Source of the DNA: Tubulanus polymorphus
Taxonomy: Eukaryota > Animalia > Nemertea
Direction: 5' to 3'
NCBI RefSeq assembly: GCF_964204645.1
Contig: NC_134026.1
Location: forward strand, 20,370,150-20,434,149
DNA length: 64,000 nucleotides
Shown here: positions 1,730-39,945 of the stretch, piece after piece
Layout of the letters: the number at the start of each line of letters is the position of its first letter
How positions within the stretch are numbered: the stretch's first letter is position 1
Notes under the pieces: model-generated
What the model was told of the DNA's origin: nothing
Seen by the model: the letters and a program-made list of their open reading frames with translations, nothing else
The model's database searches: none
Program-made: the position numbers and the translations under genes

Positions 1730-4700
1730 CTACACGGTGTGCGACCGAGGGCGAAATATCTGTTCGGCCTCCGTAAACTCCAAAGGCAGTCCGTCGATCG
1801 GATGCGGCACCGGAATCAGTTTCATTTTCGGCTTTTCGTTCTGCATGCTCCATACGGAGTTCTGCACCAGGGCGATCGTCAACGTTTTCAACAGGACGCC
1901 GGCGTATTCGCGTCCGACGCACGCTCGCGGGCCGCCTCCGAACGGCAAGTAGTCGAAATGCGCGGAGTCTTGGTCGTTGTTCGACAGTTTCGACCAACGA
2001 TCCGGGTCGAAGTCCGAAACGTTTTCGAAAAGTTTGCTCGTACACTGAGTGTCTCTAATGCTGTATGCCACTGACCATCCTTTTGGAACTTGCATACCCT
2101 GAAAATATTCGAAACATGGAACAGTCGTTTTAACATGAACTTCAAACTAGGAAAATTACGTCGTGGTCATTGAACCATGACTACAGTGGAACCTCGTTAC
2201 AACGAAGATTAGGGACCGGATCAATGTTCGTTATAGCTATCAGTTCATTATATCCAGTATAAAACAGCTATGATTATCCTATGTGGGACGAAAATCTAGG
2301 TTTTTAATAACCGAGGTTGTTATAACGGGTTCCGCTGTAGTAATGTATAAAATGCCATAAAAAAGAATTTTAGTTTAAGTACGTACATCAATTTCAAACG
2401 TTTTAATAGCTTTTCGGAATCCCGCTCCTACAGGGGGCGCTACTCGCAGGACCTCTTTAATCACTCGGTTCAAATAGGTCAAACGATGGAGCTCGTCGTA
2501 TTTCATTCCTTCAACGTCGTCGACCGCGTGCTCCTCGAGTTCGGCTTGGATTTTCTGCACGACTTCCGGTTTCTGAGCCAGTTGCATCATCGTCGTACAG
2601 GCCGCACTGGCGGTGGTCTCGTGACCGGCGAACAACAGCTCCAAACAAGCTTCTTTCAACTCCATCATCGACAATTTAGTACCATCGTCGTCCGAGGCGT
2701 TCATCAAAAGCCACAGCGCGTCGTCGTGGTCTTCGGGCGAGTTCATTCGTTCAACAATTTGTTTCTCGATCGTTTCGAGTAGCTTTTCCCTAGCTTTCAT
2801 TCCCTGCAAAACCGACGGTAAAATATTGTCGTTTGTATCGCCAGGAAAACAATTTGAATTGAAGCTCAACGAATACGATGATTTAGGAGGTTGACCGGTT
2901 GGACAGGTATACCCCACAGTTCGAATGTGCCCTCGAAAAGTTCTTGACAATTAGTTTTACAAAGAAAATTTTAAGCCTTTTTAAGCCCCTTTTGTCCTAA
3001 ATGATCAGGCATTCAGTCTTTAAAGCATTGGCAAATCTGCCATTTTTAAAATCAAGTGCCCATTCCAGGTCGACCTCTTTTAAAAAGATCCGCCCTTGTT
3101 ACCTACCTTGTGAAATCCGCTACCTGGTATGTTGTACGGCAGCGAAAATAGATTGTCGACCAGATCGTTGAATACGGCCAGCAACTGACCGATGTCGCGT
3201 CGCGTAAAATGAAATCCCAGCAGCACTCGCGCAGCCAGAGCGAAAGTTAGATATTTCGCTTCCTGATAGCCGAGTATATAGCCGTCTTCGCACCATCTAA
3301 TCACGTGGCGTTTGATAGCCCGTTGCATCGGTCGGCAGTATCTCTCCAGCGCGTCGTGGGTGAACGCCTTCGCGATCAGTTTACGCCGTTTACGATGTAT
3401 GATGCCGACCGAGTGGGAAAGAGCCCCGGTTCCCATCAGTCGTCGCGTACTCGCCGGCCACCAGGTCGTCACCAGTTTATTTTCGCCGAGCAGTATCTTG
3501 CGGACGTTTTCGCGGCCGATCACCCGCACCGTCGGCTGCCCGAGCAAATGCGTCTTGTAAACGTTGCCCAATTCCGTTCGTCGTTTCTTGAAAAATTCAT
3601 CCGCCTATGGAAATAAGAAAATTCTGATGTTTACGATAACTGAAATATCAGGGGGTATAGAAATTCCTTTCGTTAGATTTTTTCTTGAAAATCCGATGTA
3701 ATAAACACTTTGAAAGCGGATCAGTTTACCCCGAGTATTAGATTGAGTGTTTCGCCGATAAACGGAAGACCAAAACTTCCAGGCGGCAGTGGTAAATCAG
3801 AAGAGCTGTCAGCTGTGCTCAGGTTATAGTATCGCCAGAGACGTTGTACGAAGAATACGAGAATGATCGGCGTTAGAATCGACGAGATAAACCTCACCAC
3901 AAGCGTCGGATACCTGAAAAATATAAAAGGAAAATACTTGCTATAAAATATGCTCATTAGGGCACCAAAGACGGGTTTAGGGGACTAGTCCACCCCTTCA
4001 AAATTGTGACCTCCAAAAAGTCTGGAAACTCGTTTTCAAAGAGAATTTTTAAAGGACAGAAAATAAATGCAAGTGGGTTGTGATGAGGGCTAGAAATGTC
4101 CCTTTTTGTCCCAAATTTCTCGGAGTGCCACCAGAGGCCCACACTACTTTTCGTGCTTGCAGTCCTCACATTGCCACATCTGACTTGTTCAAATAAAAGT
4201 TCCTTTCGAATTTTCAGGTCCACCTCTTCCAAGAATCCAAGATCCGCCCTTGCGGGCGCGGGTATTGGGGGCTATTGATAGTTTTCGAACATTCGTTAAA
4301 TGAACGAATGATATACGAATATGAAATATTGTAAAACCGTTCTGCTTTCCGTTTTTATCTTTTAAACAAGTTGTAGAAATCTTGCTAAATAAAATTGATT
4401 GTATTTCGCTTTGTTTACTATATGTTACCAGAACGTAAGTCATTACGCGGAAACAGGTTTAGATTTATTTTTTGCCATGGCTATAATTAGAAAGATATTT
4501 CCGTAATTCAAGTATGCGCTATTAAAGATTGCGAGCTGTTTACGTTACCGTTTTATGAATGAAAACCAGGAAATACCACGTGGTCAGTGGTCATTCAACG
4601 TCAATGGTTCGTAATTACTATTATACTATAAACCGTGTTTCTGTGGCAATGTGCCAGCTAATGCTAGCGCATGTGACCTTTTGGAAAAAGTATTATTACG

Positions 4701-7792: not shown

Positions 7793-8948
7793 TTTGCACG
7801 CGTCACTCACTGAAATAAGCTTCCGATAAATGCCGAGAACATTGCAATGTTATCGAAGGAATACCGATATTACGTAACGTCTGTAGATTTCTAGGAAATT
7901 TCGATCAAGCTATTCTATATCGTCGACGTGACATCGTGCTCGAATCCGGTTGTGGATAAGTAAAAAAACAACAACCAACAAATATGATTTATACGTTATT
8001 TATCAATACGTACAACGAAACTGTTTTAAGATATGAATATTGAAAACAATAATAAAAAACTTAAACTTGACATTCCTTCTTCACAATATTGCTTTACATT
8101 GCTGCCTAAAAGTCCATCTAAAAGACATTTCGTTTGGAACAAGTCTGCGCTACAAGTATTTTTCCAAGGTAAATGTTCAGTTAAAAAGAAATACATTGTA
8201 ATACATGCTAAGGCTAGAAAATTGATACCCCGTTTCTCCTTTCTGCTGAGCTTAAAAGTTGACCGAACCGGCCGTCTATCTACCCTGTGCATTACTTGTT
8301 TTTTTTTAAAGCAAGCTAACCATTACAGACCCGACAGTTATAGAAATGAACTGATTAAAAATTTTTTTGCGATTTACAAAATGGCTTGGCCGATTAAGAG
8401 AAACAAGGTATCATTTTAAAGTCTAACCTTTAAAGGTTGAGTTCGTTCATAAGCCATCAAAGTAGGCCTAATATAATGTAAATGAAAACATAGATGTCTA
8501 CCTGTTATGTAAAAGATATGCTTAAATTTCATCAATTCAATTAAGCGAATATCAGTAACTTAAATCTATGTCAATTCAATTTATCCAGAAACTGAGGGTC
8601 ATGGTACTTGGATACTCGATATATATCTATATACTTCAGTGTAATAATCAATGCATTACTTAAAATACTCAAAGCGTTAATCAATGCATTTATAACAAAA
8701 TCGAATAATTTAGAAAATAAATACGCGTTTAACTGTTATCATCTATACAGTTATACATAAAAAGATGTAAACTCAACAAAAATCATTAAATCAAAAAATC
8801 CTCATAAACTCCTTAAAACTAAAAACAAGATAGATACTGCGGTAAGATAAAAATGCAGTCGTAAATGTGATCTTTATCGTGCGTTTGCATATAAAATCGT
8901 TACAAAATGATCCCGCATCGTCGAAGATGACTGTGGGATTGAATAGAA

Positions 8949-11900
8949 TCAGCAGCGAACGTTAGAGTCTAAAATCAGTAAATGGAAAAAGATGTCCGAC
9001 ACGTATTCTGCCATATGTTCGAGAAATCGAAGATTGTAGATGTATCGATAGGTCGTTAGGTCCCAATTGTACGACGTCACGGGTGCAATCGTTAAGCCTT
9101 CGTGCGATTTGAAGCCGATATTGTTCTGTTTCATCTGCAAAAAAGAAATAAAACTATAAAACTTAAATTGTCTTGGGGATGTGCATTAGATGTTCATGGC
9201 ATCATCGATTTACGATAAAAAATTTAAATGTTTTCTTTCTAAGTTTCAGTTTTCAAGATCCTTAATGTTACATGATTCGACCGGAAAACTAAAATAATCT
9301 CGTATCATCAGAGTTACCAAGCAGAAATCCACAGTTGATAATAAAACGTTTATTGTCTGAGAGTTTCGAAGTTTTTCTAAACTCCATCATCAGAGAAACA
9401 AAAACTACGAAAGTGTCAGACAATAAAAGTTTTGATATCAGCTGTGGCTTTTTACTTAGTAACAAGATTTTGCTAACTGGGAAAAAGGTTAAAGTTAAGT
9501 TAAGTTAAGTTAAGTTAAGTTAAGTTAAGTTAAGTTAAGTTAAGTTAAGTTAAGTTAAGATATTAGTGGTTCATACCATAAGTCGTATGTGCTCGAAGGT
9601 GTCGTTTCGATATTGTCGGATCTTTCTGAGGTGTTCCCCGATTGAATATATCTTTCGAGAAGCTGTTTGCTGGATACGGCTGCAATCTTGATGCCAATTC
9701 GCGCCGGTCGCGTTCTCGCGACAAACCCTGTACCTTTCAACCGCTTCGGCGTTTGCCATCGCCGATTCGAGGGTCTTTAGTTTGTTCGCTTCTTGTTTTA
9801 GAATAGCCTGCAGTCGGAGAAAATGAAATTGTAAAACTGAGACTTATTTCACTTATTCACTGTCTCTTATGGTGGCTGATAAGGGCCATAGCGTAAAATT
9901 CCTGGTATGCAAATGAGGGCGCCAGAACGCCAGAACGCCAAAACGAAAAAAAACGTCCAATTTTCTCTAAAAGTTCGTTTTGGCGCGCCAAAACAACGAA
10001 TATTCCGTTTTGGCACCCCCGCCAAAACGAAACGAACTTTCGTTTTGGCGCCCCCGCCAAAACAACGAAAAACGTCGAAATTTCTCTAAAAGTTCGTTTT
10101 GGCGCGCCAAAACAAAGAAAATTCCGTTTTGGCGCCCCCGCCAAAACGAACTTTCATTTTGGCGCCCCCGCCAAAACGAACTTTCGTTTTGGCGCCCCGC
10201 CAAAACAACGAAAAACGTCCAATTTTCTCTAAAAGTTCGTTTTGGCTTGCCAAAACAAAGAAAATTCCGTTTTGGCGCCCCCGCCAAAACGAACTTTGGT
10301 TTTGGCACCCCCGCCAAAACAACGAAAAACGTCCAATTTTCTCTGAAAGTTCGTTTTGGCGCCCCCGCCAAAACGACGAATATTCCGTTTTGGCGCCCCC
10401 GCCAAAACGAAAGTTCGTTTTGGCGCCCCCGCCAATACGAACTTTAAACCACGTAAAATAATTCTATATATACGTAAAATATTTTCATTTATGCAAATTT
10501 ATGCAAATTACACACAAGATCAACGCGCCAATTTGAAAAATAATTTTACTGTGGTTGAATGCTTGTTTTGGCGGGGGCGCCAAAACGGAAATAACCGCGC
10601 CAAAACGAACTTTCAGAGAAATTTCGACGTTTTTCGTTGTTTTGTATGGTGGCTGATAAGGGCCATAGCGTAAAATTCCTGGTATGTAAATGAGGGCGCC
10701 AGAACGCCAGAACGCCAAAACGAAAAAAAACGTCCAATTTTCTCTAAAAGTTCGTTTTGGCGCGCCAAAACGGAGAATATTCCGTTTTGGCGCCCCCGCC
10801 AAAACGAACTTTCATTTTGGCGCCCCCGCCAAAACGAACTTTCGTTTTGGCGCCCCCGCCAAAACAACGAAAAACGTCGAAATTTCTCTGAAAGTTCGTT
10901 TTGGCGCGCCAAAACGGAGAATATTCCGTTTTGGCGCCCCCGCCAAAACGAACTTTCATTTTGGCGCCCCCGCCAAAACGAACTTTGGTTTTGGCGCCCC
11001 CGCCAAAACAACGAAAAACGTCGAAATTTCTCTGAAAGTTCGTTTTGGCGCGCCAAAACGGAGAAAATTCCGTTTTGGCGCCCCCGCCAAAACGAACTTT
11101 CATTTTGGCGCCCCCGCCAAAACGAACTTTGGTTTTGGCGCCCCCGCCAAAACAACGAAAAACGTCGAAATTTCTCTGAAAGTTCGTTTTGGCGCGCCAA
11201 AACGGAGAAAATTCCGTTTTGGCGCCCCCGCCAAAACGAACTTTCATTTTGGCGCCCCCGCCAAAACGAACTTTGGTTTTGGCGCCCCCGCCAAAACAAC
11301 GAAAAGCGTCCAATTTTCTCTGAAAGTTCGTTTTGGCGCGCCAAAACAACGAATATTCCGTTTTGGCGCCCCCGCCAAAACGAACTTTCGTTTTGGCGCC
11401 CCCGCCAATACGAACTTTAAACCACGTAAAATAATTCTATATATACGTGAAATATTTTCATTTATGCAATTTTATGCAAATTACACACAAGATCAACGCG
11501 CCAATTTGAAAAATAATTTTACTGTGGTTGAATGCTTGTTTTGGCGGGGGCGCCAAAACGGAAATAACCGCGCCAAAACGAACTTTTCTTTGTTTTGGCG
11601 CGCCAAAACGAACTTTCAGAGAAATTTCGACGTTTTTCGTTGTTTTGGCGGGGGCGCCAAAACGAAAGTTCGTTTTGGCGGGGGCGCCAAAATGAAAGTT
11701 CGTTTTGGCGGGGGCACCAAAACGGAATATTCTCCGTTTTGGCGCGCCAAAACGAACTTTTAGAGAAATTTCGACGTTTTTCGTTGTTTTGGCGGGGGCG
11801 CCAAAACGAAAGTTCGTTTTGGCGGGGGCGCCAAAATGAAAGTTCGTTTTGGCGGGGGCGCCAAAACGGAATTTTCTTTGTTTTGGCGCGCCAAAACGAA

Positions 11901-13887
11901 CTTTTAGAGAAAATTGGACGTTTTTTTTCGTTTTGGCGTTCTGGCGTTCTGGCGCCCTCATTTACATACCAGGAATTTTACGCTATGGCCCTTATCAGCC
12001 ACCATAGTCTCTTGATCACGTCAACCAGTTAACGAATAAAAAACCCACAGTATCTATAGAAACAGTTTATTTCCTTAAAGTTTCGAGGTTAAAACTAAAC
12101 CTCATCTTCAGAGGTGCAAAAATACAATAATCGTTTATTTATTCTATTCTTTTGTACCTCTGAAGATGAGGTTTAGTTTTAATCTAGAAACTGTAAGGAA
12201 ATGAACTGTTTCTACAGATACTGTGGGTTTTTATTCGTTAACTCATCATTGAGATTCATATCAGTACGCAGTCACGTCAACCAGTGGTGTAAGATGATAC
12301 CCTAGTGAACTTAACTTACCGCTGGGAAGGCGACGTTGTCTGAAATGCGTTTAACGAAAATTGGTTTCAATTCAAGATTGACGTCTTTCGATGTCGGGAA
12401 TTGATCGGACGACAAGTGATCAGGTAATGACGATCCCACCTGTAAAATATGATAGATGATGGTGTATTGAAACCGTGTTTAACTAAAACTCCATTTGAAT
12501 TTGACAGATTTCTGATATTCTCAATCTTCGGCCGATATGACATATTCTATTGGCGTTATAGATTGACGCGAAAATTATGCGAATTATAAATCAGAACATT
12601 GATCAAATAGATCAATATTCGTATCTCTGGATTTAGCACTTTTTTGCAGTCTAATCACTGCATTCCGCTAGATGGCACACTGGTACTACGACACTTGATT
12701 TTAAGAAACCGATTACGGATGCAATTTGCATACTGATATGCGTGACGTCACGGATGAATATGCCGAATTAACAACTGTGGCTGATTTAGGGCGAGAAACC
12801 CGCTGAAAAATACTTTTTAGACCGAGTATGCCATCCTTCGATTGATGCTTAGTCTGGTTTACCCATTTACTGTATTTCTTTTCTAGCACAAATACTTGTC
12901 TTGTGAATGAAGCCCTGGGACTTAATTCTGATTGACGTGAGGCTTACGTACTTTTCTCTTGTAATTCTGGTATTCTATATCAACTTTAAGTTTGAGTTGG
13001 TAGCCGCTGTTGATGAGGTGCTCCAGTGCAGCAGACCTACACACGGCTCTCGGTTTAGGTCTGTTTTTCTTGTTTTTTCCGAGGCGTCGTGGTTTGTTTT
13101 TGTTGGCGTTTTTCTTCTTGCCAGCATTTGTGACACGAGTGGAAACGCCCGCGCGCCTCATTCGAACGTTCATCGAGGATGATAGCCCGCCGTCGTTGAT
13201 ATTATTCATTGCCGCAGCGCTGGTCGTGCTCAAACCAGATGTCGCCGCGGCAGACGAAGTCACTGGTACGGCTAGGGCTGCTTGGTTGACGTAATAGATA
13301 GTCACCAGCAGCCAGATAATAGAATGTAGTATGGATGTGGCTGCAAAACAATTAATCAAAATACAGCAACGTAAAAACTACACGGTCATATCAATGCACA
13401 CGATTGACTGGGCTCTTATCTCGAAAATTGACGTTTTTATCAGTAGATACGTATAAGCTGAGCAAATAGTACAAAACATTTTTAAACATTAGTGGAAACA
13501 ACCAGAACTCCCAGTCAATAAGTATATATGAGCTGAGATGTTACTATGAAAGTCAAAATTATGATCGAAATGAAATCTAGAAATGACAAAATACAGATAA
13601 ATAGTAGCGCCCAAAATCAGTCAACATTGCCTAAAGTGATACTTAAAAGACATTTAGATGCACGTTGCTAGCTATGTTAAGTCCGAAACAATTTAATGAC
13701 ATGCATGGCGCCGATTCGTGCAGCAAAATCGAGATATTCTTTCACGACCAGGAAACGCTTCTTGGTGCCTGGATCGGTCATCTGTTTCCTGGGATATTTT
13801 GTACGATCGATATGTGTATACCATGTTTATCGTGCGCTGATACGAAAATGTATATGTATTGTAGTGCTTACCTGGTTGTTGTAACAT
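8949..13887 (-). CDS. Secreted 313-aa protein, predicted long-chain four-helix-bundle (class I, IL-6/G-CSF/GH-like) cytokine
   Basis: Exons 13887-13872 (MLQQP, phase 1), 13340-12952, 12439-12320, 9807-9577 and 9134-8949; all GT-AG, 942 nt, open throughout. Signal peptide (SILHSIIWLLVTIYYVNQAALA), Ser/Thr/Ala-rich pro-segment, furin site RMRR, K/R-rich stretch, then four predicted amphipathic helices with 4 Cys. The gene model is well supported; the cytokine call is an inference. Confidence 0.75.
9312..9463. mobile_element. Penelope-like inverted-repeat remnant with hammerhead-like core (intron 4 of cytokine-like gene)
   Basis: Inverted arms at about 9312-9360 and 9417-9463. Minus strand reads tct-CTGATGA-tggagttt-agaa-aaacttc-GAAAC-tctc-aga; the opposite arm retains gaaagtGTCaga. 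Confidence 0.55.
9495..9559. repeat. (TTAAG)n pentanucleotide microsatellite, about 13 copies
   Basis: Perfect ttaag array directly visible, ending about 17 bp from the exon 4 donor at 9576. Confidence 0.95.
9868..12006. mobile_element. Non-autonomous foldback DNA transposon, probable IS3EU superfamily, composite of two copies
   Basis: Termini TATGGTGGCTGATAAGGGCCATAGCG... / ...CGCTATGGCCCTTATCAGCCACCATA, flanked by the 6-bp direct repeat gtctct (9862-9867 and 12007-12012). A second left end starts at 10645. The arms are higher-order arrays of gttttggcgcccccgccaaaac and ttttggcgcgccaaaa units. An AT-rich spacer occurs twice (about 10440-10565 and 11410-11535). Confidence 0.85.
12027..12243. 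mobile_element. Penelope-like inverted repeat carrying two opposed minimal hammerhead ribozyme motifs
   Basis: About 95-bp near-perfect inverted arms. Minus strand (~12114-12073): cct-CTGAAGA-t-GAGGTT-tagtttt-AACCTC-GAAAC-ttta-agg. Plus strand (12157-12198): cct-CTGAAGA...GAAAC-t-GTA-agg. A 14-bp direct repeat tcacgtcaaccagt lies at 12016-12029 and 12272-12285 (probable TSD). Confidence 0.65.
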
Positions 13888-13984: not shown

Positions 13985-14075
13985 CGGAAAATTTCGACGT
14001 CAGATCTGGGATTTTCCGTCGATTTGTTTATTATTGACCATTCCCGTATCTGGGGTTTCTTGATCTTAGGCAATT
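13985..14075 (-). promoter_or_regulatory. Candidate inducible promoter module of the cytokine-like gene (NF-kB + CRE-like + C/EBP-like)
   Basis: GGGATTTTCC at 14008-14017, cgacgtca at 13995-14002 and ttaggcaat at 14066-14074, all 110-190 bp upstream of the ATG at 13887. The transcription start is unknown. Confidence 0.4.
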
Positions 14076-17000
14076 AGCGCGCGTTTGGGGCACTATCGAA
14101 TCTGAAATCGCGGACGAGGGGTTTTTAACAGGTAAAAGCTGTAAGAAAATGCATGCGGAAGTTACATGAATGGTGTTTTTGTGTATGAAATTATGACAAT
14201 CATCTATGACAATGGCGATGCGGAAGTGATACGCGTCGTATAGTTAGTACTAATTAATCTAATTTCCACGAGCAAATCCAATTAAATGCGACGACCGGAA
14301 AATCAGTTCTGTTTAAGCTATAATAATCAGAATTTCCCATTCTAAAGTGAACTTTGTATGGCGCGATGAAAGGCCCAATTCGATATGACCGAGTCGTTTA
14401 GATGGTATATCCACAAAATCGATTATTTCCGTTAATCGAAAAAAAAGAAACATCATAACTAATCGATGACAGTAAAACGTGATTCATAAAACGGAGTTCG
14501 TTCGTTCTCCAGTTTTTCTCTTTTAACGTTAAGGAACTTTGGCAATGTAGAAATACAACGACGGATGAAATAGTGTTTCTCGTACGTAAGTAGGAGGAGT
14601 AAGTAAATATCGAATGTTATTTCAATTGATACATCGTGTCATCTCACTTGTCAGTAATTTACATTTTCGAAGTAAGTAACGTATATTTTTCACCATGAAT
14701 GTGTACAAAATCAATAATAGTAAATTCAATCAGAAGCAATCGGGTACATATTCAGATGACAGCAGCCTGAGCAGAGCCACCACATGCTGTGTATCCAATA
14801 GGATATACAGACTCCCTGACAAAACACGACACGAAAAAAAAGACGAAAAGAATTGGAAAGGGATGCATTGATGAAAAATTTAGATAAAGTAGCGGAATGA
14901 GCTAACAGTTGCATCAGATGTCATTAGAGCCGATTAGCTCATATGGGCGCACACCTGGTGCCCACGACGTGTGGACGGTTTTGTTCACCATAGGTCTATT
15001 TCCTCGTTGTTCGTATCGGAAAAGATGAAAAAAAGAATATCTATCGAAGTGACTCGGTGATCAAAATTAAAAAAGAAAGAAAAACATCATCCGTGATCGC
15101 ATTCAAATCCCAATCTTTACGCCAGTTTTTTAGGACCTTATTTGCGGCATATGAAGAAATCATTCGAATATTCAATGTTAATGAGTCGTAAACAAGTTTG
15201 CCCCGAGGTGAAATGTGCCATTAGTTTTTCTGTTTACGCCTGTGAAATTCAGTACGTCGTTCACCGACAGCGCGTAACTATAATGCAATACGAAGAGTTT
15301 GATATCTTAATAGTTTAAGACGTGATAATGGCTAATGGATTTATTGAATGGGTTAAGTGTTGTCTTTTGAATATGTATGTATTATTCGTCAAAACGAAAT
15401 GCCAATTAAAGAAGACAATGTTGATAGTAAATAGACCAGAAAGAAGCTTTCGTTTTATACGAATGAAATTTCGAATCGAGTTTAAAAACGGCCGTTTCTT
15501 TTCTTAATCTACGCGTTGACCACATTGTAAGACGCACGCCATTCGATTCTAATCCTGTCAAGAATGACGGTGTTGTACTAATCGCGTCGTTAATCTCGGA
15601 GCGATTGTAGCGCCCCCCGTGGAATATATACCGGTGGGAAAAATCGTTCGAACGGAACGGTTACGGCGAAAACAATAACGACACTAAAACACGTTTCATG
15701 TCCCCGAAAAGTATTCTGCATTAACATATTATTATGTATTTAATATGTCCACTGTGTACGCTTTAAATCTATGATCAACGTTCTGTGTTTACCGGTAAAG
15801 CTTGCGTCGTCGTTATCATAGTTGGATTTATTCGGGGAGTTAGGAATTCGGCGGAGAAAACAACATGAACAAAACCCGAACTCTCCCGATTCAAACTGCG
15901 GGATGCTGCGAAAAAAGATACAACAGCGTTTTATCACGTAAACAGTAGCGTTGAATTATCTCTACGCACACACGTCTGGTGTGGTGGCTGTATCGGAATA
16001 TGGTGCTTCTACCCGAGCTGAACAAACAGCCTGGACTTGTTGCCATGGCGCAGGTGGAACAGGACGAAAGGTATGAGCTCGTCTATCATCATTCATTCGG
16101 TGAAAAATACGATTGCATTCGAGCGACTTTTTTCAGACGATGAAGCAGGCTACACGCCCGTAGCCAGAATTTTGAAAAATTTGTGCTTTTTTGAGACGAA
16201 CGCAACTTTGTTGTTTGATCTATGAATAGGGATTGAGCCTGTTGTTTATTTGTTTGGTAGATTTCTTTTGATTTTTGTTTTGATCTAGTGTACCTTACAA
16301 ACCCACCACACCTACCGGGTGCGAAGCAGGGGTTTGATTTTGAAATCGAAAATTGAAGTACAGATATAGTTGTGTGATCGGCGGTCGAGTTTACAGATTT
16401 CCTGTTTAAATCGAAGTAAATAATTTTAAATTCGGTTCTGGTTCATTCAAACAATCTTCCAACCTGTCTGTACCGGTAAGCCACTGATAGGGTTTATCTT
16501 GTTAATGAGGCACATTTTATCACACGATACGTGTTATCGATATTGAAAGGCTTCATTGAATTATATTCGAAATGATACTATCATCATCATTTACTTCTAT
16601 TGAATCCTAAATCCCAGCCCTGACAACCGCCTCGATATATGCACGGACGTATAAACCACATGTAGGATGCTAGATAATTTTTTCATTGTAGAATAGAATG
16701 AAATACGTAATATGATGTAATGTCTTGTCTGATGTGCTAAAACGGAATGACTATTCCCATTCATAGGACGATTTTTCTGTAGGGATATAAACTTTTGTTT
16801 TGATATCAATATATGACTATAAAACGTGACCGACGGGCCATTAAGCTTGTCATTTCGGTTTCACGGGGGAATTAGAATAATTATTGTAATGGTAAATTGG
16901 GTACCTATAATACAGCTCACGGGACCGCAAGCTAATCAAATACCCCATATACCCGTGTAATGGCGACGCTCTGACAAATTAAGGATATGTTTTAGAATAT

Positions 17001-21200: not shown

Positions 21201-23981
21201 TGTAGAAATTGGTGTCATTATGACTAAATGTACTATATCTAATACGGAGAAGTTACCTTTCGACCCAATATTGAATAGGGCATTTACCGAAATTCATATG
21301 CACTGTTACGCAAGCGTATGTTTCAGATTACGTAAGCAAATGTAAGTGGCGGTTTATCAAAGACGCACACACGAAATTGTAGAATTTTGAGCCCACCTAC
21401 CCCATGTCCACAGATTATCCACATTGCACTAACCCCCCCTCCTTGACCATCGCACAAAATGCGAATAAGGATATCCAGTCACGCCAAATAATGTTCTTTT
21501 CGTTCACTTAACTAAACTCTGGACTACAGTTTGTTATTCCATACATAATGTGGAAAACATATATGTGAACTATTTCCCCTTCGAAGTTGAAGTAATCATG
21601 CATTATTGGTTTGTTCTGGCTTTACAGGAATTAAGGTGTGCACATCCAAATAACTCACCCTCCCACATTGTCCACAAGTCAAGTTCACAACCCCCTCAAC
21701 CTTGACAATCTTTTATGGACGGCCCCTAAAATCTGATTCAGTTTCTACAAAGATTTATCCAAAAAGTTTCCCGAAAGATTTCATCGGACATAACCTGATG
21801 ACCAATCAAGTAAATGCAATGATAATCAAAGTTAGCTAAAATGCTTTTTTTTTGTTTTTTTCTCTTGAAACAGGGACATCACCGATGACAGCATTGCTAC
21901 GCGGTTGTCATTCGAAAAAAACGACGTTCACGATAGTGGTATCAAAGCCGACCGAAAATCGAACGCCCATTTTCTAAGGAACGATAAAAACAAAACTTCC
22001 AAAAAGGTTCGCAGCAAAGTGGGACATTCGTACGTCCTAAAATCGGAAGTCGGTCCCGGTGGCCGTAATAGGCTGTTCGCTGATGATGGCGGTAACAGCG
22101 GCAACGAATTTGTGGACTTGCGTCTGAAGTTGCTAAATGACTATATTACTTTGCACGAGCCTGTGTTTAAAAAGTCGAAAAAACCGCGGACGAATTCGCG
22201 GCGCGTGTCAACCGATACTGGCGACCGAGCAAGCGACGACAAAGCCAGGGACCGATATAAGGAAAGGGTAGACGAAGAACTTACGAAATCGAAACAAAAG
22301 AAATCACCGTACAGAACGATTAGTAAGCTCGCGAAAAAGCCGTACGGCATTCAGGGGTACAATCGCTCGAAGGAGAACAAATCGAAAGTGGATCCTCAGA
22401 AATTGCGAGAGGGATTGACGACCCCCGCTACGACGTGTAAGGTATATTCGTCGAGACCGGCCGCTAAGCCGGATCCGTTGTTGTTCAAAGAACGAAGCGA
22501 AATGTGGAAGTTGCGTAACCATACCGACGAAGAGCACGTGCTTACCGAAAACGAAGCCGATATGTACATTCAAATACGCAACGTGTACAAGGACCGGTCT
22601 CTGAGCGACAAGGAACGACGGAAATTGGAGTTTCTGAAGAAGGTCGAATCGTTGCAGACGGAATGCGCCAAAGAGATGAATAATCAGTTACGTCTGAAAG
22701 AGATCAAAGAGGAAAATAAACGCCACATGCAAAACGAACAGTTGTACTTCATTCGCAAGCGTTTCTTGGAGGAGCAAGTGAAGAGGTGGCGCACGCAGTA
22801 CGTGACGGTCAAGGTTCTCCAACACGAGAAAAACGATCGATTTCTGTACGGGCTTCCGGAACTATTCGACGAGATACCGCACTATAAAACGCGCGCGAGA
22901 AAACGCCGCAAGGCCGTCGGCGCCGACTCGAAGAAAAACGCCCAACGCTACGGCCAGATGTTCGAACATAACCCTGGTCCGGTCGTATTCCGCGCGAAAA
23001 CGCCCAAAATGGAAAACTACGTGATCGTCGAAGAAAAAGACGATAAAGGTAAAAATACGTAGAACGACAAAAAATCAAGCCTTTATTAGAAATATATACA
23101 TATTTTCGAATCGTATTTTAGTAAGATATCCGCCTTTAGAAAACCTAGAAAATCTTTTAGATGCATCTTTTCTCAGGGTTCCAGATGAACATTGTTGAGG
23201 AACGATTTTTATCTCGATAAATTATTTCTAGTTAATACTCTATCCATAAAGTGTATTTCGAAAGAAGATGATTTGTGCAGTTTCACTAATGGTCGATAAA
23301 CCGGCCTACCGTATGAAGTTATGATATACTGGTCACTAGGATTCAATAGATTTTTTAAAAAGATATTTTTTATTACTGTACGTCAACGGATTAAGTATTA
23401 TTTGATGGATATTCAACGATACAAAAACGACTGTAAGACACGCGCTATATCTTTTCAGGAAATACCATAGAAAAACGTATTCGAATGAAAGATATTGTCA
23501 ACGATGCGAAAAAAGTGCTCACAATACCCACCATTAAAGGTACCATATGTATAATTAATTCGATTTGTTTTCACTAGAAGCCCGAACACGTTACCGATTT
23601 GTCTGGCGGAGAAAATTCAGCTATGGATCCATTGATATAGGCACACGCTTCTAAGCCCAACGCACCTGAGGCGGGGAAACACGGATATAGAAGACAGAAA
23701 CATGCTCCGAGCGTTTTCTTGTGTGTCGTGGTCGTTAACGTACATTTTTGTTTCCGTGTTTCCGTGCGTCTTGCGGGTTGGGCTATTGATGCATAGATTA
23801 TCAATAAATTGATTTGTTTTTTCCAGACATCGAGGAAGAGGATGCCGAGTCGACACTGTCAAAGTCAACCCGCGCGTCGCTGCGTTCGCTGGACCTTGAC
23901 GACCAAGAGGACATTTTCGAAAAAGCCAGACGTAAATATGGAATAGACGTTGAAAGCGAGTCGGACGATGATGATTATTAA
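18249..23981 (+). CDS. Uncharacterised basic, low-complexity protein with C-terminal coiled coil (multi-exon)
   Basis: Phase-consistent GT-AG exons 19648-19865, 20032-20133, 21049-21139, 21874-23048, 23459-23539 and 23827-23981 (ends DIFEKARRKYGIDVESESDDDDY*). A probable upstream exon at about 18249-18485 (MTAKLEGPFLPKL...) joins in frame only if one A is removed from the A7 run at 18431-18437, so the 5' end is uncertain. No recognisable domain. Confidence 0.7.
18454..19003. repeat. 79-bp tandem repeat, 7 copies
   Basis: Units start at 18454, 18533, 18612, 18691, 18770, 18849 and 18928 (gatcttgatgaatttcttctacatttaacaaggtaac...cgtaagttagcga), with few substitutions between them. Confidence 0.95.
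19175..19470 (+). repeat. Dispersed repeat, copy 1 (related copy at 60721-61025)
   Basis: Shared colinear blocks tgacgccgtaaaaaccgt, tcatcaatattggcgtttcaaaataac, tgcact.cgtc.tcaata.atcgg and tagactggt. Confidence 0.75.
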
Positions 23982-25992: not shown

Positions 25993-26697
25993 ATGTAACC
26001 ATCAAATTCAATAAAAATAAAAACGGACTTATTGATTCGATTATTGTTGAAACGATTTGAAAATGTACAGAATGCACCGTTATATAAGCGGCATATTTAT
26101 CGCGACTCACATGTCGACGTATTTGACATACTATAGCAATTTGGAATACATTTTTGTTTATGCATAATTCATTCGATGAGGTCAGATTATGATATACACG
26201 TAGTACGCCTTTGTGCTTTTTTCAACTATATAGGGCCTACCTTTCGCTAAAATCGTCGATCGCGTACCAGTTAAGAAACAAAAACAGGTTTGATGAAATT
26301 AGGATATCAAATAACCATTCGAAAGGTAAAGTAAGCGCTGATAGCGTCGTAAACGGCACAAAGATGTATCAAAATCGTGTCACCACGATAAAGAATGAAT
26401 GGTAGATTTATGCAGGTGAGTTCGTGCATACTCCGATATTCCAGAGATCTCTTTCACAGAATGACTAAGCTGCGTCAGTTTAACTATTATGAAATGAAGT
26501 TTCGTCAGTATGACTATTATGAGATAAGTCGAGAAAATACGCAATATTTGTACTGGCGTATTGATATTAAGACATTCTGTGAAACAGTAGGGCCAATGAT
26601 AAAAAAGTGAAATCATCAGTTGACACGGTTGCATTCAGAAATGAACTAACATATCATATGCCATTAAACAAATGTTTTTAGAATTAAAACGGAAACA

Positions 26698-28239
26698 ATG
26701 TGGTCGCTATGGTTTTTGCTGTTCGCGGGGATTTGTGCAGGGAAGAGAATATTGGTGTTGGCACCCTGGATGAGCGGTCAACTGTCCGAAGCATCCGGCA
26801 TCTGCGACGCATTGATAGAAAACGGTCACGAAGTTTACGTCGTTACCGAAGAACACGCGAAATACCCGAAACAGCTGAAACACGTCTTCGGCCTGAAATA
26901 CCTACATTTTCGTTCACCGGATCGGAAAATCCTAGCAGCAGAAACAATGGATAACGAATTAAGCAAGTCGATATTTGGCGACGCTGACCATGATTCGCTG
27001 CTGACAAACTTGGCTGAATTGACTAGTTATTTCGGCGAAAGTCTTCTGAATGACACTGATTTAATGAAAACGGTCAAGGAGCTCAACTTCGATTTTGCTC
27101 TTTTCGACTCGTTCATCCCATTCCTAGGCATCATCCCGTACGTTGCCGATATCAAATACGCGTCCTGGTCTCCATTTTTGACGCCGTTCCGGATGAATTT
27201 GCCGCTTTTGACCGGTTTCGAGCCTTGTAATCTGCGCGGAGATCGAAATACCTTTTTCAACCGCTTAAAACACGTACATCGTACCATGCGCTTTAATTTT
27301 ATGTCATTTCAAATGACACCAGAGGGAAAATACCTAAAATGGATTCGGAATAATTACCCTTCACGCGCGCTAAAAAGGTCGATATCCGAAGTTATTTCTA
27401 ACTCCGCCTTTTTCATATTGTCCACGAGCAACCTACTCGATTGTCCGGCACCGTCGAAGCCAAACATAGTATACGCAGGCGGACTGAGTGTCCATCCATC
27501 GAAACCATTATCTGGAAAATTTGAAGAAATAGTTGATTCAGCCAATGATGGAATAATTGTCTTCACGCTCGGTTCCATGGTTTCGCAGATGCCAAATAAC
27601 GTGCTAGAAAAATTCATCGTAGCCTTCAAAGAAGTAAAGCAGATAGTTCTCTGGAGGCTGACTCTCACAGGGCTGCACAAAAATATCGCCATCCCGTCTA
27701 ATGTGCACATCGTGGACTGGTTACCGCAAAACGATTTGTTGGGCAACCCCAAAACTCGCATCTTTATAACCCACGCCGGCGCAAACAGCCAGGCAGAGGC
27801 TATATACCACGGTGTACCTGTCGTTTGTTTTCCCTTACTCGATAACGACCAAGCATACAATTCGAAGAAGTTCGCCTCGCGTGGATTTGGTTTGGAGTTG
27901 AAAATCCGAACGTTCGAACCCGACGAGCTTTTAGCAGCCGTTAACGAAATTCTAACGAACCGAAAATATAAGAACAATATTATGAAGTCGTCGAAAATAT
28001 TCAAATCGAGTGGACCGTCTTCAAAACGCGTGGCTGAAATGATCGAACACGTTTTAGAATTCGGCGAGGAGCATCTAAAAACGGCCGGGGATCAGATGGA
28101 ATGGTATCAATTTTATATGATTGATGTATTCCTTTTCGTGTTTGTGACCGGATTTACGTGTCTATACATGTCTTATCGGATCGCTAAGTCGATCTCCAGG
28201 TACTGTTTATGTAGCAAGAAAAAAACACAAACAAATTGA
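26698..28239 (+). CDS. UDP-glycosyltransferase (GT1, animal UGT), single coding exon, 513 aa
   Basis: Signal peptide, GHEV motif, UGT signature WLPQNDLLGNPKTRIFITHAGANSQAEAIYHGVPVVCFP..DQ, C-terminal TM helix and KKKTQTN tail. A splice acceptor lies just upstream of the ATG. Confidence 0.95.
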   Translation: MWSLWFLLFAGICAGKRILVLAPWMSGQLSEASGICDALIENGHEVYVVTEEHAKYPKQLKHVFGLKYLHFRSPDRKILAAETMDNELSKSIFGDADHDSLLTNLAELTSYFGESLLNDTDLMKTVKELNFDFALFDSFIPFLGIIPYVADIKYASWSPFLTPFRMNLPLLTGFEPCNLRGDRNTFFNRLKHVHRTMRFNFMSFQMTPEGKYLKWIRNNYPSRALKRSISEVISNSAFFILSTSNLLDCPAPSKPNIVYAGGLSVHPSKPLSGKFEEIVDSANDGIIVFTLGSMVSQMPNNVLEKFIVAFKEVKQIVLWRLTLTGLHKNIAIPSNVHIVDWLPQNDLLGNPKTRIFITHAGANSQAEAIYHGVPVVCFPLLDNDQAYNSKKFASRGFGLELKIRTFEPDELLAAVNEILTNRKYKNNIMKSSKIFKSSGPSSKRVAEMIEHVLEFGEEHLKTAGDQMEWYQFYMIDVFLFVFVTGFTCLYMSYRIAKSISRYCLCSKKKTQTN

Positions 28240-31383: not shown

Positions 31384-32410
31384 AATTTTGTTCAGAATAG
31401 ATTACACATGATATAGAATTGACGATACATATAACCTGCTTTTTGGTTTGCCTTTGAACTCCTGTTGCGATATGACCGACCTAAGCGAGCTCAAAATAGA
31501 GACACTGATCATAGACGACGTTATTAAACGCGCTTGCGAGCCTCAGCAAAACAGATAAAATAGCGCGCACGTCAAAAACAAGTACCGGATTAAAGGTGAA
31601 AGGTCGGTAAGCGTGTCGGTGCCTGGTTAAGCGCGTTCGATTTTACGCGAACATCACAAACACACACCGATACGACTAGAGGGTAAGAATATTCTTTCTA
31701 TAATACAGTTAGTAGAAACAGTTATTTTTAGTCGTAGTACCCACTGACGTATATATGTATTATGCATATTTTACTTATATCACCGTCCTCGCAAACGGCA
31801 ATTTCCTTAAAAACTAAGTAGGTTCGCCTTGTGTTATTAGGTTTGAACATTTTCTTTTCCGAACTGGGCTTAATTGAACTATTGAACTTTCCCGTGGTAT
31901 TTTGATAAAAGGCCCTCAGCGTAGTGCGATATCGGAATGTTAGCAATACACCCGATAGACTATAATACATTATGTAAAAATATAATCACCCTAACCTTGA
32001 TCGGGCTTTCACATTAACGGAACTGTCAGTTGATTACATCCATTGATGACAATCTAGGGTTTCGCGATGATCCGCTATAGGGTCACAGTTAGTAAGTCGT
32101 TTTCTTCTACAGTTCAATTGAAATCGAACCAACCGTTCTCCTAAGTGAATCGACTATCAACTCGAAGTAAAAAGTCTGAAACCTACATCTAGTATTTGGT
32201 GCCTAATTATCGAATCCACAAGTCGCTGGAAATGAAATCAATTTTACTACAAACACACTTCGTTAAGCGGTCAGCTGATCGTGTTTACTGACTAAATAGT
32301 GGCCTTCTATATCATAGGGATATGGATATTATATATGAATATATCGCAAAACCGTATAGGATAATAGAAGTTTGTTCTATGTATTTCAGGTTAACATTAA
32401 GTAATTGACG

Positions 32411-33955
32411 ATGAAGTTTTGGGCGTTTGGATTACTTCTGTGGGCCAGCATTTCCACAGGGAAGAGAATAATCGTGTTTTCGCCCTTGATGAGCGGCCAA
32501 CTCGGAGAAGCTTCCGGTATATGCGACGCTTTGATTAAGAGCGGCCACGAAGTTTACATCGTTACCGAAGAACACGTTAAGTACCCGAGACAACTGAAGC
32601 ACGTCACCGGCCTGAAATATCTACACTTTCGTTCGCCGGTTAAAGAAACGCTGGCCCCGAAAACACTCGAAAATAAATTGGCCGAGTTCATATTCGAAGA
32701 AATCGATTTGATAACGTTTATGAAAAAAATGGACATTCAATCGTTCACGAATTACTTCGGAGAATGCCTACTCAACGACACCCATCTGCTGAAAAACATA
32801 AGGCAACTCAATTTTGATTTCGCTATATTTGATTCGTTCATGCCATTTCTAGGAATCATCCCGTATATAGCCGATATTCCGTACGCTTCGTGGTCTCCGC
32901 TTACGACACCGTTTAGGATGAATTTACCGCCGCTGACCGGTTTCGAGCCGTGCGATCTGTACGGAGATAGAAACACGTTTTTCAACCGTATCAAGCACCT
33001 TTTTCAGGCCTTGTTCTTTCAGAATATTCCGTACTTCATGACGAATGAAGCTAGATTCGTCAAATGGATTCAGGATAATCACCCTTCACACGCGCTGAAA
33101 AGATCGCTTACCGAAATCGTGTCCAATTCGAAGTTTTTCATATTGGCCACAAACAATTTACTCGATTGTCCTGCGCCATTAAACCCGGATATAGTATACG
33201 CAGGCGGATTGTCCGTCCATCCACCGAAACCATTATCAAAAGAAGTTGAAAAAATAGTTCAAGCGGCCAATGATGGAATTATTGTATTCACACTCGGGTC
33301 GACTGTTTCAAAGATGCCGAACAACGTCCTTGTCAAATTTATTGACGCCTTCAAAAAAGTGAAGCAGACAGTTCTTTGGAGGTTGACTCTTAGTGAAGAT
33401 CAGAAAGACATAGTTTTTCCATCAAACGTGAAGATCATGGAGTGGTTACCGCAAAACGATTTATTGGGTAACCCAAAAACGCGCTTATTCATAACTCATA
33501 GCGGTGCAAACGGTCAGGCAGAAGCTTTATATCACGGAGTTCCTGTCATCGGGTTTCCCATACACGCGGACCAGATTTACAACGCAAAAAAGTTCGCCAT
33601 GCGCGGATACGGATTGGAGTTGAACATTCGCAAGTTCGAATCCGACGAGCTTCTACGAGCTATACACGAGATATTATCCAATCCGAAATACAAGAACAAA
33701 ATTGAATGGTCTTCGAAGATTTTCAAATCGGGCGGATTGGCCTCGAAAAATGTGGCTGAAATGGTCGATCACGTTTTAGAATTCGGCGTAGAACATCTAA
33801 AAACGGCCGGGGATCAGATGGAGTGGTATCAGTTTTATATGATTGATATGTTCCTTTTTGTCGTTGTAACCGGATTGCTTTGTCTCTACGCGTCGTATCG
33901 CATCGCTAGGAGGTGTTTAGGATACTGCTTTAGTAGCAAAAAGAAAACAGAATAA
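32411..33955 (+). CDS. UDP-glycosyltransferase (GT1, animal UGT), single coding exon, 514 aa
   Basis: ATG at 32411 follows the acceptor tttcag at 32389. Signal peptide, signature WLPQNDLLGNPKTRLFITHSGANGQAEALYHGVPVIGFPIHADQ, TM helix and dilysine KKKTE. Confidence 0.95.
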   Translation: MKFWAFGLLLWASISTGKRIIVFSPLMSGQLGEASGICDALIKSGHEVYIVTEEHVKYPRQLKHVTGLKYLHFRSPVKETLAPKTLENKLAEFIFEEIDLITFMKKMDIQSFTNYFGECLLNDTHLLKNIRQLNFDFAIFDSFMPFLGIIPYIADIPYASWSPLTTPFRMNLPPLTGFEPCDLYGDRNTFFNRIKHLFQALFFQNIPYFMTNEARFVKWIQDNHPSHALKRSLTEIVSNSKFFILATNNLLDCPAPLNPDIVYAGGLSVHPPKPLSKEVEKIVQAANDGIIVFTLGSTVSKMPNNVLVKFIDAFKKVKQTVLWRLTLSEDQKDIVFPSNVKIMEWLPQNDLLGNPKTRLFITHSGANGQAEALYHGVPVIGFPIHADQIYNAKKFAMRGYGLELNIRKFESDELLRAIHEILSNPKYKNKIEWSSKIFKSGGLASKNVAEMVDHVLEFGVEHLKTAGDQMEWYQFYMIDMFLFVVVTGLLCLYASYRIARRCLGYCFSSKKKTE

Positions 33956-35248
33956 TCTGATATTCATTTGTATATCGCGTATTTCGTATTTAGTTTTGAA
34001 ATTAGAAATTTATTTTCGTTAAAATGTTACATTGTTGGACGTATGGTTTCAAATATAATGTAAGAAGAAAAATGTATTACTTAGAAATGGGGCTACAAGG
34101 AGAGACTGAAACGGTCTAATCTAGGCCGTATCAATCAGAAGCACCCACACCACAATCATTATATTCGCACACCACGCACACACGTATCAAATAGACATCG
34201 AATGGAAATAGAAAATGTTTACATTTTAGACATGATTACATTATACATAGTCCTTTAAAGAATAGAATTTACAAAGTTTATATGATGATTTTATGTAAAT
34301 ACGTTTGAATGCACTTAGGATAGATAAATGTAAAGTGAAGATGTCAATATGACTTAGGATCGATAACAATCTCTTAATAATTATCTAATTAATTATCGGC
34401 AAAGTATCGATGTAATCAAAATATTATTTGCTGACGTCCGTTGCTCGTCGGTGACCTCGAATAAAATCGTGTAGTGCGCCGATGATTGATAAAATCAGGG
34501 CTTTCTTTCAACTTCCAAGTAGATAAAAGTATAGGAAGCGCTCAGTAATTATTGTTAATTATTGTTAAATGAATGGCCCGGAAAATTGCTGGTGCACTGC
34601 TGCTGCTGTTAAATCTCCTCAACTTGCCACTTGCAATGCTGATATTGACATCGTGCACTAACCATTGAAACTGTTTTTGTCAATGCAAATATTTCTTTGT
34701 TGACAATAAAATTATCTATCTATCTAACTATCTATCTATCTATCTTATTGGGACTTCTTTATAATTCTAATATGATTTAAATTGAAAAACCTATAGGCTA
34801 TCGACCAATAGTTCATTCTATTTATGTACACCGTTTGGATCTGGTGAGGTACGTGCCCATTCATGGTCTTTGCATACGAACAACTGGAATCCAATGCCCA
34901 AAATAGAAACGCTTTATTCGATCAAATCTCGTTTATAAAAACACGAACCAACAGTAATATGAAAATAACGCACGGGACGATGAAAAAATAGTTGAATTCC
35001 ATTGGTGTCTTTAAACTTGTTTTTGTTCAGGCATATTCGTTTTTCTTCGCAAATCGCATACACCGTGTATACCTGCGTAACGAATAAAAGGTAGGTTTTT
35101 TGCTTTTCATTCAGTTGCGTGTAAATGCAAACTAATGATCTTGAAAATTCGCAAAAACTCTCATAACACCGTCGAAAGTAAAATCAATCAGTTAAGCCCT
35201 AAATCGTATATATATTTCCCATTTTTCAGATAAAGTAACGGAAATAGG

Positions 35249-36796
35249 ATGAAGTTTTTACCGTTTCTATTTTTCCTGTTGGACGGCGTCGCAATGGGGA
35301 AGAAAATCATCGTGCTTTCACCATTGCTGAGCGGCCAACTCGGGGAAGCTGCCGGTATCTGCGACGCTTTGATAAAAAACGGCCACGAAGTTTACATCGT
35401 TACCGAAGAACACGTCAAGTACCCGAGACAGCTGAAGCACGTCACTGGCCTCAAATATCTACACTTTCGTTCGCCGGATAAAGAAATCCTTGCGCCGACG
35501 AATCTTGAAAACAAACTGGCCGAGTTCGTATTCGATGAAGTCGATATTATCACAGTGATGAAAAAAATGGGTGTTCAAACTATAGGAAATTATTTCGGCG
35601 AATGTTTACTCAACGACACTGATCTAATGAAAACTGTCAAGGAACTCAATTTCGATTTTGCCATATTCGATTCGATGATGCCGTTCCTAGGCGTCATTCC
35701 GCACGTAGCAGATATCCCATATGCCTCGTGGTCTCCGCTGTTGATGCCGTTAAGGATGAATTTAGCACCGCTGACAGGCTTTGAGCCTTGTGATCTGTAC
35801 GGAGATCGAAATACGTTTCTCAACCGCGTAAAACACGTGTTTCGAGCCATCGTCATTCAAAACATTCCGTATTTCATTTCGCCCGATGCCAAATTCGTTG
35901 AACTGATTCGCGATAACTATCCTTCACGCGCGTTAAAAAGATCGCTCTCCGAGATTGTATCCAATTCGAAGTTTTTTATATTGAATACAAATAATCTGAT
36001 CGATTGTCCGGCACCGCGGAAGCCTGATGTAATATACGCAGGCGGATTGTCTGTCCGTCCACCAAAACCACTATCAAAAGAAGTTGAAGAAATAGTTCAA
36101 GCGGCTAATGACGGTATTATCGTATTCACACTCGGTTCTGTGATTTCAAAGATGCCAAATAACGTTCTTGCAAAATTTATCGACGCCTTCAAAAAAGTAA
36201 AGCAAACAGTTTTCTGGAGGCTGACTCTCCGAGATGATCAAAAACACACAGTTTTCCCTTCTAACGTGAGGATCATGGAGTGGCTTCCGCAAAACGATTT
36301 ATTGAGTCATCCTAAAACTCGTTTATTTATTAGCCACAGCGGTGCAAACGGCCAGGCAGAGGCTTTGTATCACGGAGTTCCCGTCATTTGTTTTCCTTTA
36401 CTTAATAACGATCAAGTATATAATGCTAAGAGGTTCGTCTCGCGGGGATATGGATTAGAGTTAAACATCCGAACGTTCAAATCCGATGACCTTTTTTCAG
36501 CTATCAATGAAATATTAATAAATCCACAATACAAAAACAAAATTCAACGGTCTTCGAAAATGTTCAAAGCAAGTGGGCTGTCTTCGAAAGTTGTCGCTGA
36601 AATGGTGGATCACGTTTTAGAATTCGGCGTAGAACATCTAAAAACGGCTGGGGATCAGATGGAATGGTATCAATTTTATATGATTGATCTATTAATTATT
36701 TTCTTTCTAACCGGGTTGATAAGTATTTACATTTCTTATCGGATAGCTGTGAAAGCGTTTAGATGCTGTTTCAACAAGAAAAAGAAAACAGAATGA
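35249..36796 (+). CDS. UDP-glycosyltransferase (GT1, animal UGT), single coding exon, 515 aa
   Basis: Signal peptide, signature WLPQNDLLSHPKTRLFISHSGANGQAEALYHGVPVICFPLLNNDQ, TM helix and KKKKTE tail. Acceptor ttttcag at 35229. Confidence 0.95.
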   Translation: MKFLPFLFFLLDGVAMGKKIIVLSPLLSGQLGEAAGICDALIKNGHEVYIVTEEHVKYPRQLKHVTGLKYLHFRSPDKEILAPTNLENKLAEFVFDEVDIITVMKKMGVQTIGNYFGECLLNDTDLMKTVKELNFDFAIFDSMMPFLGVIPHVADIPYASWSPLLMPLRMNLAPLTGFEPCDLYGDRNTFLNRVKHVFRAIVIQNIPYFISPDAKFVELIRDNYPSRALKRSLSEIVSNSKFFILNTNNLIDCPAPRKPDVIYAGGLSVRPPKPLSKEVEEIVQAANDGIIVFTLGSVISKMPNNVLAKFIDAFKKVKQTVFWRLTLRDDQKHTVFPSNVRIMEWLPQNDLLSHPKTRLFISHSGANGQAEALYHGVPVICFPLLNNDQVYNAKRFVSRGYGLELNIRTFKSDDLFSAINEILINPQYKNKIQRSSKMFKASGLSSKVVAEMVDHVLEFGVEHLKTAGDQMEWYQFYMIDLLIIFFLTGLISIYISYRIAVKAFRCCFNKKKKTE

Positions 36797-39729: not shown

Positions 39730-39945
39730 AGTTCACACGGGTGCCAAATGGGCCCGGACCAGGCCCGAGCTAAATTCCATCACGGGTGAAATCATTTCCA
39801 ATTAATTGTTACAGGTTCCGGATGTGACTCGTCTTGTTTTGTTTAAGCATTATTCATCGAGTGAGTGGTTTGCGTGTGAACGCGCTCTCTAATCAGGCAA
39901 GGGCCAAATTTGACTCGGGCCAAATCGTCACCGTGTGATCGCAGC
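39730..39945. mobile_element. MITE with ttcacacgg...ccgtgtga termini (PIF/Harbinger-like)
   Basis: gttcacacggg at about 39731, ccgtgtgatcgc at about 39931, internal gtgtgaacgc and inverted ggcccg motifs. Confidence 0.5.

Follow-up and report, generated by a model that had tools for sequence, protein, structure and literature searches.

A five-exon nemertean gene for a putative secreted helical protein, possibly a class I long-chain cytokine

Gene model on the minus strand

The window analysed here is a stretch of animal DNA of 64,000 nucleotides, with a GC content of about 39%, from the nemertean Tubulanus polymorphus (contig NC_134026.1, positions 20,370,150 to 20,434,149). Its minus strand harbors a gene of five exons, 942 nucleotides in total, which join into 313 codons and a TGA, the single stop. 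The product, which may be a secreted cytokine, is distributed over the exons as follows (positions are those of the window).

13887-13872, minus strand: exon 1, 16 nt, ATG and start of the coding sequence; donor at the 99.9 percentile
13340-12952, minus strand: exon 2, 389 nt, residues 6-135; signal h-region, Ser/Thr/Ala-rich pro-segment, furin motif, basic tract, Cys106 and proposed helix A
12439-12320, minus strand: exon 3, 120 nt, residues 136-175; Pro-containing long A-B loop, with the lowest helix propensity among all segments
9807-9577, minus strand: exon 4, 231 nt, residues 176-252; predicted helices B and C, Cys204, Cys217, N-glycosylation sequons at N207 and N243
9134-8949, minus strand: exon 5, 186 nt, residues 253-313 and TGA; C-D loop, Trp276, predicted helix D and terminal Cys313

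The four introns all have GT..AG borders and their phases are 1-0-0-0. Splice sites were scored with a generic weight matrix. The donors ranked at percentiles 99.9, 96.2, 99.9, and 95.6 among the 7162 GT sites of the window and the acceptors at percentiles 95.4, 95.8, 99.8, and 99.8 among its 5818 AG sites, all eight lying above the 95th percentile. An alternative donor for exon 2, at position 12947, was rejected owing to its lower score and the resulting frame shift. Codon usage was scored after training on nine other open reading frames (ORFs) of the window. For each of the four exons tested (exons 2 to 5), the score was highest in the proposed frame, at percentiles 100, 97.8, 96.2, and 97.1 of equal-length stop-free non-coding stretches (n = 27, 8791, 965, and 2626), which overlap and hence are not independent. 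A preliminary description of this DNA had proposed five exons with canonical splice sites, an uninterrupted frame of 313 codons, a first coding exon of 16 nt, and intron phases 1-0-0-0, with no mention of the minus strand. The intron borders, splice-site ranks, codon bias, and spliced translation bear out this gene model. The five-exon reading frame is thus confirmed to be intact, with splicing read from sequence signals alone.

DNA contigs of sequencing run X1, which is possibly the source of the window itself, displayed no difference across all five exons, indicating that an assembly error is unlikely. Run X4, which is only presumed to be RNA, provided no match on the gene; it was uninformative, since a single 34-nt piece was matched over 19.9 kb that included a P450 gene and a high-copy repeat.

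Most of intron 3 is filled by a repeat that lies outside the coding function of the gene.

9868-12006, strand not applicable: high-copy palindromic element in intron 3

This element resembles a miniature inverted-repeat transposable element, with 164-nt terminal inverted arms (98% identity), internal tandem units of 144 nt and 30 nt, and a nested duplicate arm starting at position 10645. Its units carry words of the gamma-activated sequence (GAS) type, TTCN3GAA, and its summed contig depth is in the thousands, versus approximately 30 for unique DNA. Other repeats include a short hairpin element with 83-nt arms (12039-12232), a perfect pentanucleotide microsatellite of 13.6 copies in intron 4 (9492-9559), and another high-copy short repeat downstream from the gene (about 8218-8417).

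Secretory layout, predicted helices, and upstream motifs

The following features were located in the translated product.

13270-13340, minus strand: rest of the likely signal peptide, putative cleavage after Ala29 by inspection
13153-13164, minus strand: RMRR, residues 65-68, sole R-X-[KR]-R furin consensus of the protein
13048-13119, minus strand: polybasic tract, residues 80-103, 13 Lys or Arg in 24 residues and no acidic residue
12952-13038, minus strand: proposed helix A, residues 107-135, a candidate with a mean helix propensity like that of helices B to D
9804-9712, minus strand: predicted helix B (AlphaFold2, exon 4), followed by a 5-residue link
9696-9580, minus strand: predicted helix C (AlphaFold2, exon 4)
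9065-9063, minus strand: Trp276, directly ahead of predicted helix D, two residues before its start at 278
9059-8955, minus strand: predicted helix D (AlphaFold2, exon 5)

Hydropathy and inspection revealed a hydrophobic stretch at residues 9-23, followed by A-x-A and Val-Pro, so that the N-terminus is likely to be a signal peptide ending at Ala29, in keeping with the earlier proposal. The Ser/Thr/Ala-rich segment that comes next ends in the RMRR motif. This motif and the basic tract had also been predicted, and both are present in the translation. The net charge is +15 over residues 68-104, and the polybasic tract is a candidate anchor to heparan sulfate or matrix. The core (residues 105-313; 24.4 kDa) contains two N-glycosylation sequons and the four expected cysteines, Cys106, Cys204, Cys217, and Cys313. 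Further R-X-X-R sites are present at residues 202, 236, and 239.

AlphaFold2 was applied to exons 4 and 5 separately, as single-exon models. Exon 4 was modelled as a helical hairpin comprising helices B (177-207) and C (213-251), with a mean predicted local distance difference test (pLDDT) score of 82.9. For exon 5, the model consisted of a 25-residue loop and one long helix (278-312), with pLDDT values of 89-96 over most of it. The two exons are therefore predicted to provide three long helices of 31-39 residues, and the models agree with the claims that helices B and C are joined by a short link and that a long loop precedes a helix D opened by Trp. The connections would comprise 40 residues between A and B (from helix propensity and Pro content only), 5 between B and C, and 25-26 between C and D, a long-short-long spacing that fits up-up-down-down cytokines. 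The limits of the exons agree with those of predicted structural elements: a loop for exon 3 on the basis of helix propensity, and, in the models, a helix-turn-helix for exon 4 and a loop with a helix for exon 5. The predicted N-terminus of helix D has an aromatic residue, Trp276, by position only, and Trp-Asp-Leu-Thr is found at this location instead of an FXXK motif. At the end of proposed helix A, Tyr-x4-Gly followed by hydrophobic-Pro is presumably reminiscent of LIF/CNTF-type cytokines.

Several motif matches are clustered upstream from the ATG.

13986-14338, strand not applicable: motif matches only; kB-like at 13986, cAMP response element (CRE)-like at 13996-14002, strict kB at 14008-14017, ETS at 14156 and 14221, kB-like at 14329-14338

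The strict kB site, located 121 nt upstream from the ATG, is one of four in the 64 kb, and the ETS matches are two of the seven in the window. Shuffling gave P values of 0.0225 for the strict kB site, 0.0485 for the adjoining CRE-like site, and 0.0025 for the ETS pair, all of them post hoc (the motifs were seen first), relating to four of nine motif classes, and uncorrected. A recount of kB-like motifs identified two distinct sites in the 500 nt upstream, a number equalled in 13 of 1246 other sliding windows; inclusion of a pattern term written after viewing the sequence raised this number to three, equalled in none of the 1246. TATA, GAS, AP-1, and C/EBP patterns were absent from the upstream region. 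Two further candidates for support were rejected, AU-rich elements in the 3' region (ATTTA count) as not significant (P = 0.21) and the GAS-like sites of intron 3 as part of the repeat element. The upstream cluster speaks modestly in favor of an immune gene that is inducible, and has no bearing on the fold.

The remainder of the window contains other genes. A multi-exon cytochrome P450 is located on the minus strand at about 1733-3604 (Pfam p450; best PDB match CYP120), and we take it to resemble the CYP26 retinoic-acid hydroxylase clan. A charged ORF of 397 codons on the plus strand (21869-23062), without significant Pfam match (best E = 0.1), is probably one exon of a larger gene. Three intronless UDP-glucuronosyltransferase (UGT) ORFs are arranged in tandem (26668-28239, 32405-33955, and 35234-36796; Pfam UDPGT on the first, which was the one scanned). 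ApeC domains preceded by PAN/apple-like N-terminal exons characterize at least two genes on opposite strands at about 37211-43972, where position 43056, within an ApeC exon region, has a second strict kB site. The ApeC domain is reported to be confined largely to aquatic invertebrates (PMC9585378), so that these genes by themselves make such an animal the very likely host. Broken ORFs for an endonuclease and a reverse transcriptase of the long interspersed nuclear element type were identified by eye at 47554-50447.

Homologue searches, favored reading, and alternatives

Two of the three UGT ORFs are exact matches of deposited proteins (NCBI/UniRef), indicating that gene models of the assembly have been deposited. 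Exons 4 and 5 and the last part of exon 2, used as queries, nevertheless gave no self-match within the length limits of the searches, which a shorter partial model could escape, as could a withheld record. The gene is therefore probably unannotated. The search for relatives called for by the preliminary description was performed with one exon per query, which makes each search weak, and provided no relative in any other species. In word-index protein searches, exon 4 drew 31 candidates among proteins of 136-2000 residues and exon 5 a single one among proteins of 108-2000 residues, but none reached E ≤ 10; residues 88-129 of exon 2 drew no candidate (227-2000 residues). A HMMER search of 1.84 billion representatives, again using exon 4, gave no hit at E ≤ 0.001. 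Sequence searches of the PDB with exon 5, exon 4, the end of exon 2, and exon 3 gave 0, 3, 1, and 0 matches, all unrelated and with E ≥ 0.45. Viral and metagenome contigs searched with exon 4 provided 11 and 152 pattern matches, respectively, none of which was confirmed. Exact look-up of five single-exon ORFs retrieved none of them, and tblastn revealed no paralogue in the 64-kb window (best non-self E = 0.15). Exons 2 to 5, scanned singly, had no match at E ≤ 1 to Pfam IL6, IL11, LIF_OSM, CNTF, EPO_TPO, Hormone_1, Leptin, or Unpaired.

With moderate confidence, we favor a class I long-chain cytokine that is secreted, trimmed by furin, and bound to matrix, and whose receptor would be Domeless/gp130-like. 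This reading draws on the reading frame, splice signals, and motifs present at the locus, and on the prediction that helices B, C, and D follow a long-short-long pattern of connections. Following infection or injury, factors of the NF-kB, CREB, and ETS types would switch the gene on. The signal peptide (about residues 1-29) would be removed and a furin-type convertase would cut after Arg68. The polybasic tract would then tether the mature chain of approximately 245 residues to heparan sulfate or matrix, keeping the signal local. The core (about residues 105-313) would form an up-up-down-down bundle, a topology described as requiring long A-B and C-D loops (PMC7378365). The first and last cysteines bracket the core, which would fit a bundle with the start of helix A near the end of helix D; a Cys106-Cys313 bond would tie these two ends together, and Cys204-Cys217 would close the B-C turn. 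At the tip of helix D, Trp276 would engage an Ig domain of the receptor as does site III of IL-6, reported to be made by a Trp hot spot (PMC7378365), and the bound Domeless/gp130-like receptor would signal via JAK/STAT. For LIF, OSM, and CT-1, site III is reported to be made by FXXK at the N-terminus of helix D (PMC9601804). A Dome/gp130-type receptor has been inferred for the protostome-deuterostome ancestor (PMC1963337).

Several observations weigh against this reading. Helix C was significantly amphipathic on the basis of its hydrophobic moment (P = 0.016), in contrast to helices A, B, and D (P = 0.79, 0.66, and 0.17, respectively). The single-exon searches of deposited proteins provided no homologue. 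Finally, intron phase alone is a weak filter and weak evidence of class, since a lamprey screen is reported to have retained 132 genes on phase, of which 14 passed the filters for signal and length and only one was the target (bioRxiv 2026.05.30.728932). The long-chain cytokine architecture proposed in the preliminary description therefore stands in part, upheld by the gene model, the secretory layout, and the predicted helices B, C, and D with their loops, and weakened by the poor amphipathicity of helices A, B, and D and the missing homologue.

The product could instead be a secreted helical matrix-binding protein of unrelated fold (a coiled-coil hairpin oligomer, a structural or mucus protein, or a ligand of another receptor class) displaying a cytokine-like exon layout by chance. 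The exon 4 model is a generic hairpin, helices A, B, and D are weakly amphipathic, and single exons have no family match; introns of phase 0, and those of phase 1 that follow a signal exon, are the commonest kinds. We consider this explanation unlikely, if worth serious attention, because the loop spacing aligned with exon borders, the Trp at the predicted tip of helix D, the terminal Cys pair, and the kB cluster agree on a cytokine. The absence of any self-match, although two of three neighboring UGT ORFs are deposited, and of a homologue in other species might instead point to a chance assembly or a silent pseudogene. This is improbable in view of the rank of all eight splice sites, the in-frame codon bias of all four exons tested, the lack of any stop or frameshift over 313 codons, and the coherent order of signal, pro-segment, and core.

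The product might also be a helical cytokine that is not of the class I long-chain type, being either short-chain or a class II member like interferon (IFN) and IL-10, with a class II receptor or a receptor tyrosine kinase as its target. The number of exons, the signal peptide, the helices, and the kB sites upstream would fit equally well, and an IFN-like protein has been reported in oyster (PMC9756803). IFN genes are described as having phases 0-0-0-0 and five helices (bioRxiv 2026.05.30.728932), whereas intron 1 is here in phase 1 and exons 4 and 5 are predicted to give three long helices, making this assignment very improbable. We give least credence to a precursor cut into short peptides, in which the basic tract might provide a cationic antimicrobial peptide or cleavage at basic sites might free helical ones. 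The furin motif, the +15 segment, and the additional R-X-X-R sites are compatible with such processing, and kB sites would suit an immune effector. However, repeated peptide units are absent, the additional sites sit within predicted helices, and 209 residues of complex sequence with four cysteines follow.

Significance and comparison with known cytokine systems

A 2026 survey of 18 phyla and subphyla reported IL-6-family ligands only in vertebrates, the invertebrate ligands listed being insect Upd and a shrimp lectin, and the co-occurrence of receptor, JAK, and STAT in molluscs (PMC13203501). Vago4 has since been reported as a shrimp Domeless ligand (bioRxiv 2026.10.26.761873), and identification of lamprey IL-6 itself is described as having required a structure-guided search (PMC13081863). 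Among the top-ranked titles listed for invertebrate helical cytokines, with subscription journals mostly beyond coverage, we found none on IL-6-type ligands outside chordates and insects. A gene with coordinates makes the question of the JAK/STAT activator of marine invertebrates experimentally approachable, and exemplifies a type missed by annotation and by sequence search alike. Should the fold prove correct, the exon plan held in common would imply that the IL-6/G-CSF/GH gene architecture is older than the divergence between this lineage and vertebrates. We propose more tentatively, with doubt slightly prevailing, that the gene encodes a true class I long-chain cytokine, furin-released and heparan-sulfate-anchored, whose exon plan of the IL-6 type and NF-kB/CRE promoter module were kept from the bilaterian ancestor. 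It would be the missing ligand of the Domeless/gp130-like receptor in an aquatic lineage outside insects and cephalopods, such ligands having been overlooked as unannotated and diverged beyond sequence search. The product may both work like a class I long-chain cytokine and be one, with an unusual pro-segment and basic anchor.

Phases 1-0-0-0 are found in the IL-6, G-CSF, GH, and EPO genes. From hagfish to mammals, most IL-6 genes are reported to be divided into five exons, one of the introns interrupting the signal region and the other three the domain (PMC13081863), and the introns of the present gene each fall at the matching structural border of this layout. Five exons and one intron in the signal region are likewise features of the IL-6/gp130 family and G-CSF (PMC13081863). 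The predicted succession of long loop, helix pair, long loop, and helix, with an aromatic residue where helix D opens, is a further likeness to this family. As in human IL-6, kB and CRE-like motifs are located upstream, and in the human gene the kB site is reported to work together with the CRE (PMC3783445). The human kB site has the strict kB 10-mer as its core (PMC3783445); in the present gene this 10-mer is reversed relative to the gene. The product is also longer (313 residues) than the 150-280 range used to find lamprey IL-6 (PMC13081863). Unlike members of the IL-6/gp130 family, it has a pro-segment and polybasic tract that add approximately 75 residues ahead of proposed helix A, its predicted helices are longer, the FXXK motif is absent, and single exons have no detectable sequence similarity.

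The tiny first coding exon and phases 1-0-0-0 are shared with EPO/TPO, GH/prolactin, and leptin. EPO and TPO have a first-to-last Cys bond, to which the candidate Cys106-Cys313 bond may be compared, and X-Pro after the signal peptide is common to group 1 long-chain cytokines and the present gene. In contrast, single exons had no sequence match to these hormones, for which a furin motif and a basic tract are atypical. BLAST is reported to have detected no invertebrate leptin homologue in 54 genomes (PMC5385356).

In Drosophila, Upd1 has a long N-terminal extension and binds matrix, a likeness to the pro-segment and candidate matrix anchor of the present product. The Unpaired proteins (Upd1-3) offer an invertebrate parallel, as secreted JAK/STAT ligands of Domeless modelled as four-helix bundles (PMC5385356). 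Homologues of Upd2 are reported as annotated only in Drosophila species (PMC5385356). The present gene differs in that it belongs to an ApeC-bearing aquatic invertebrate and in that its exons, scanned singly, have no match to Pfam Unpaired.

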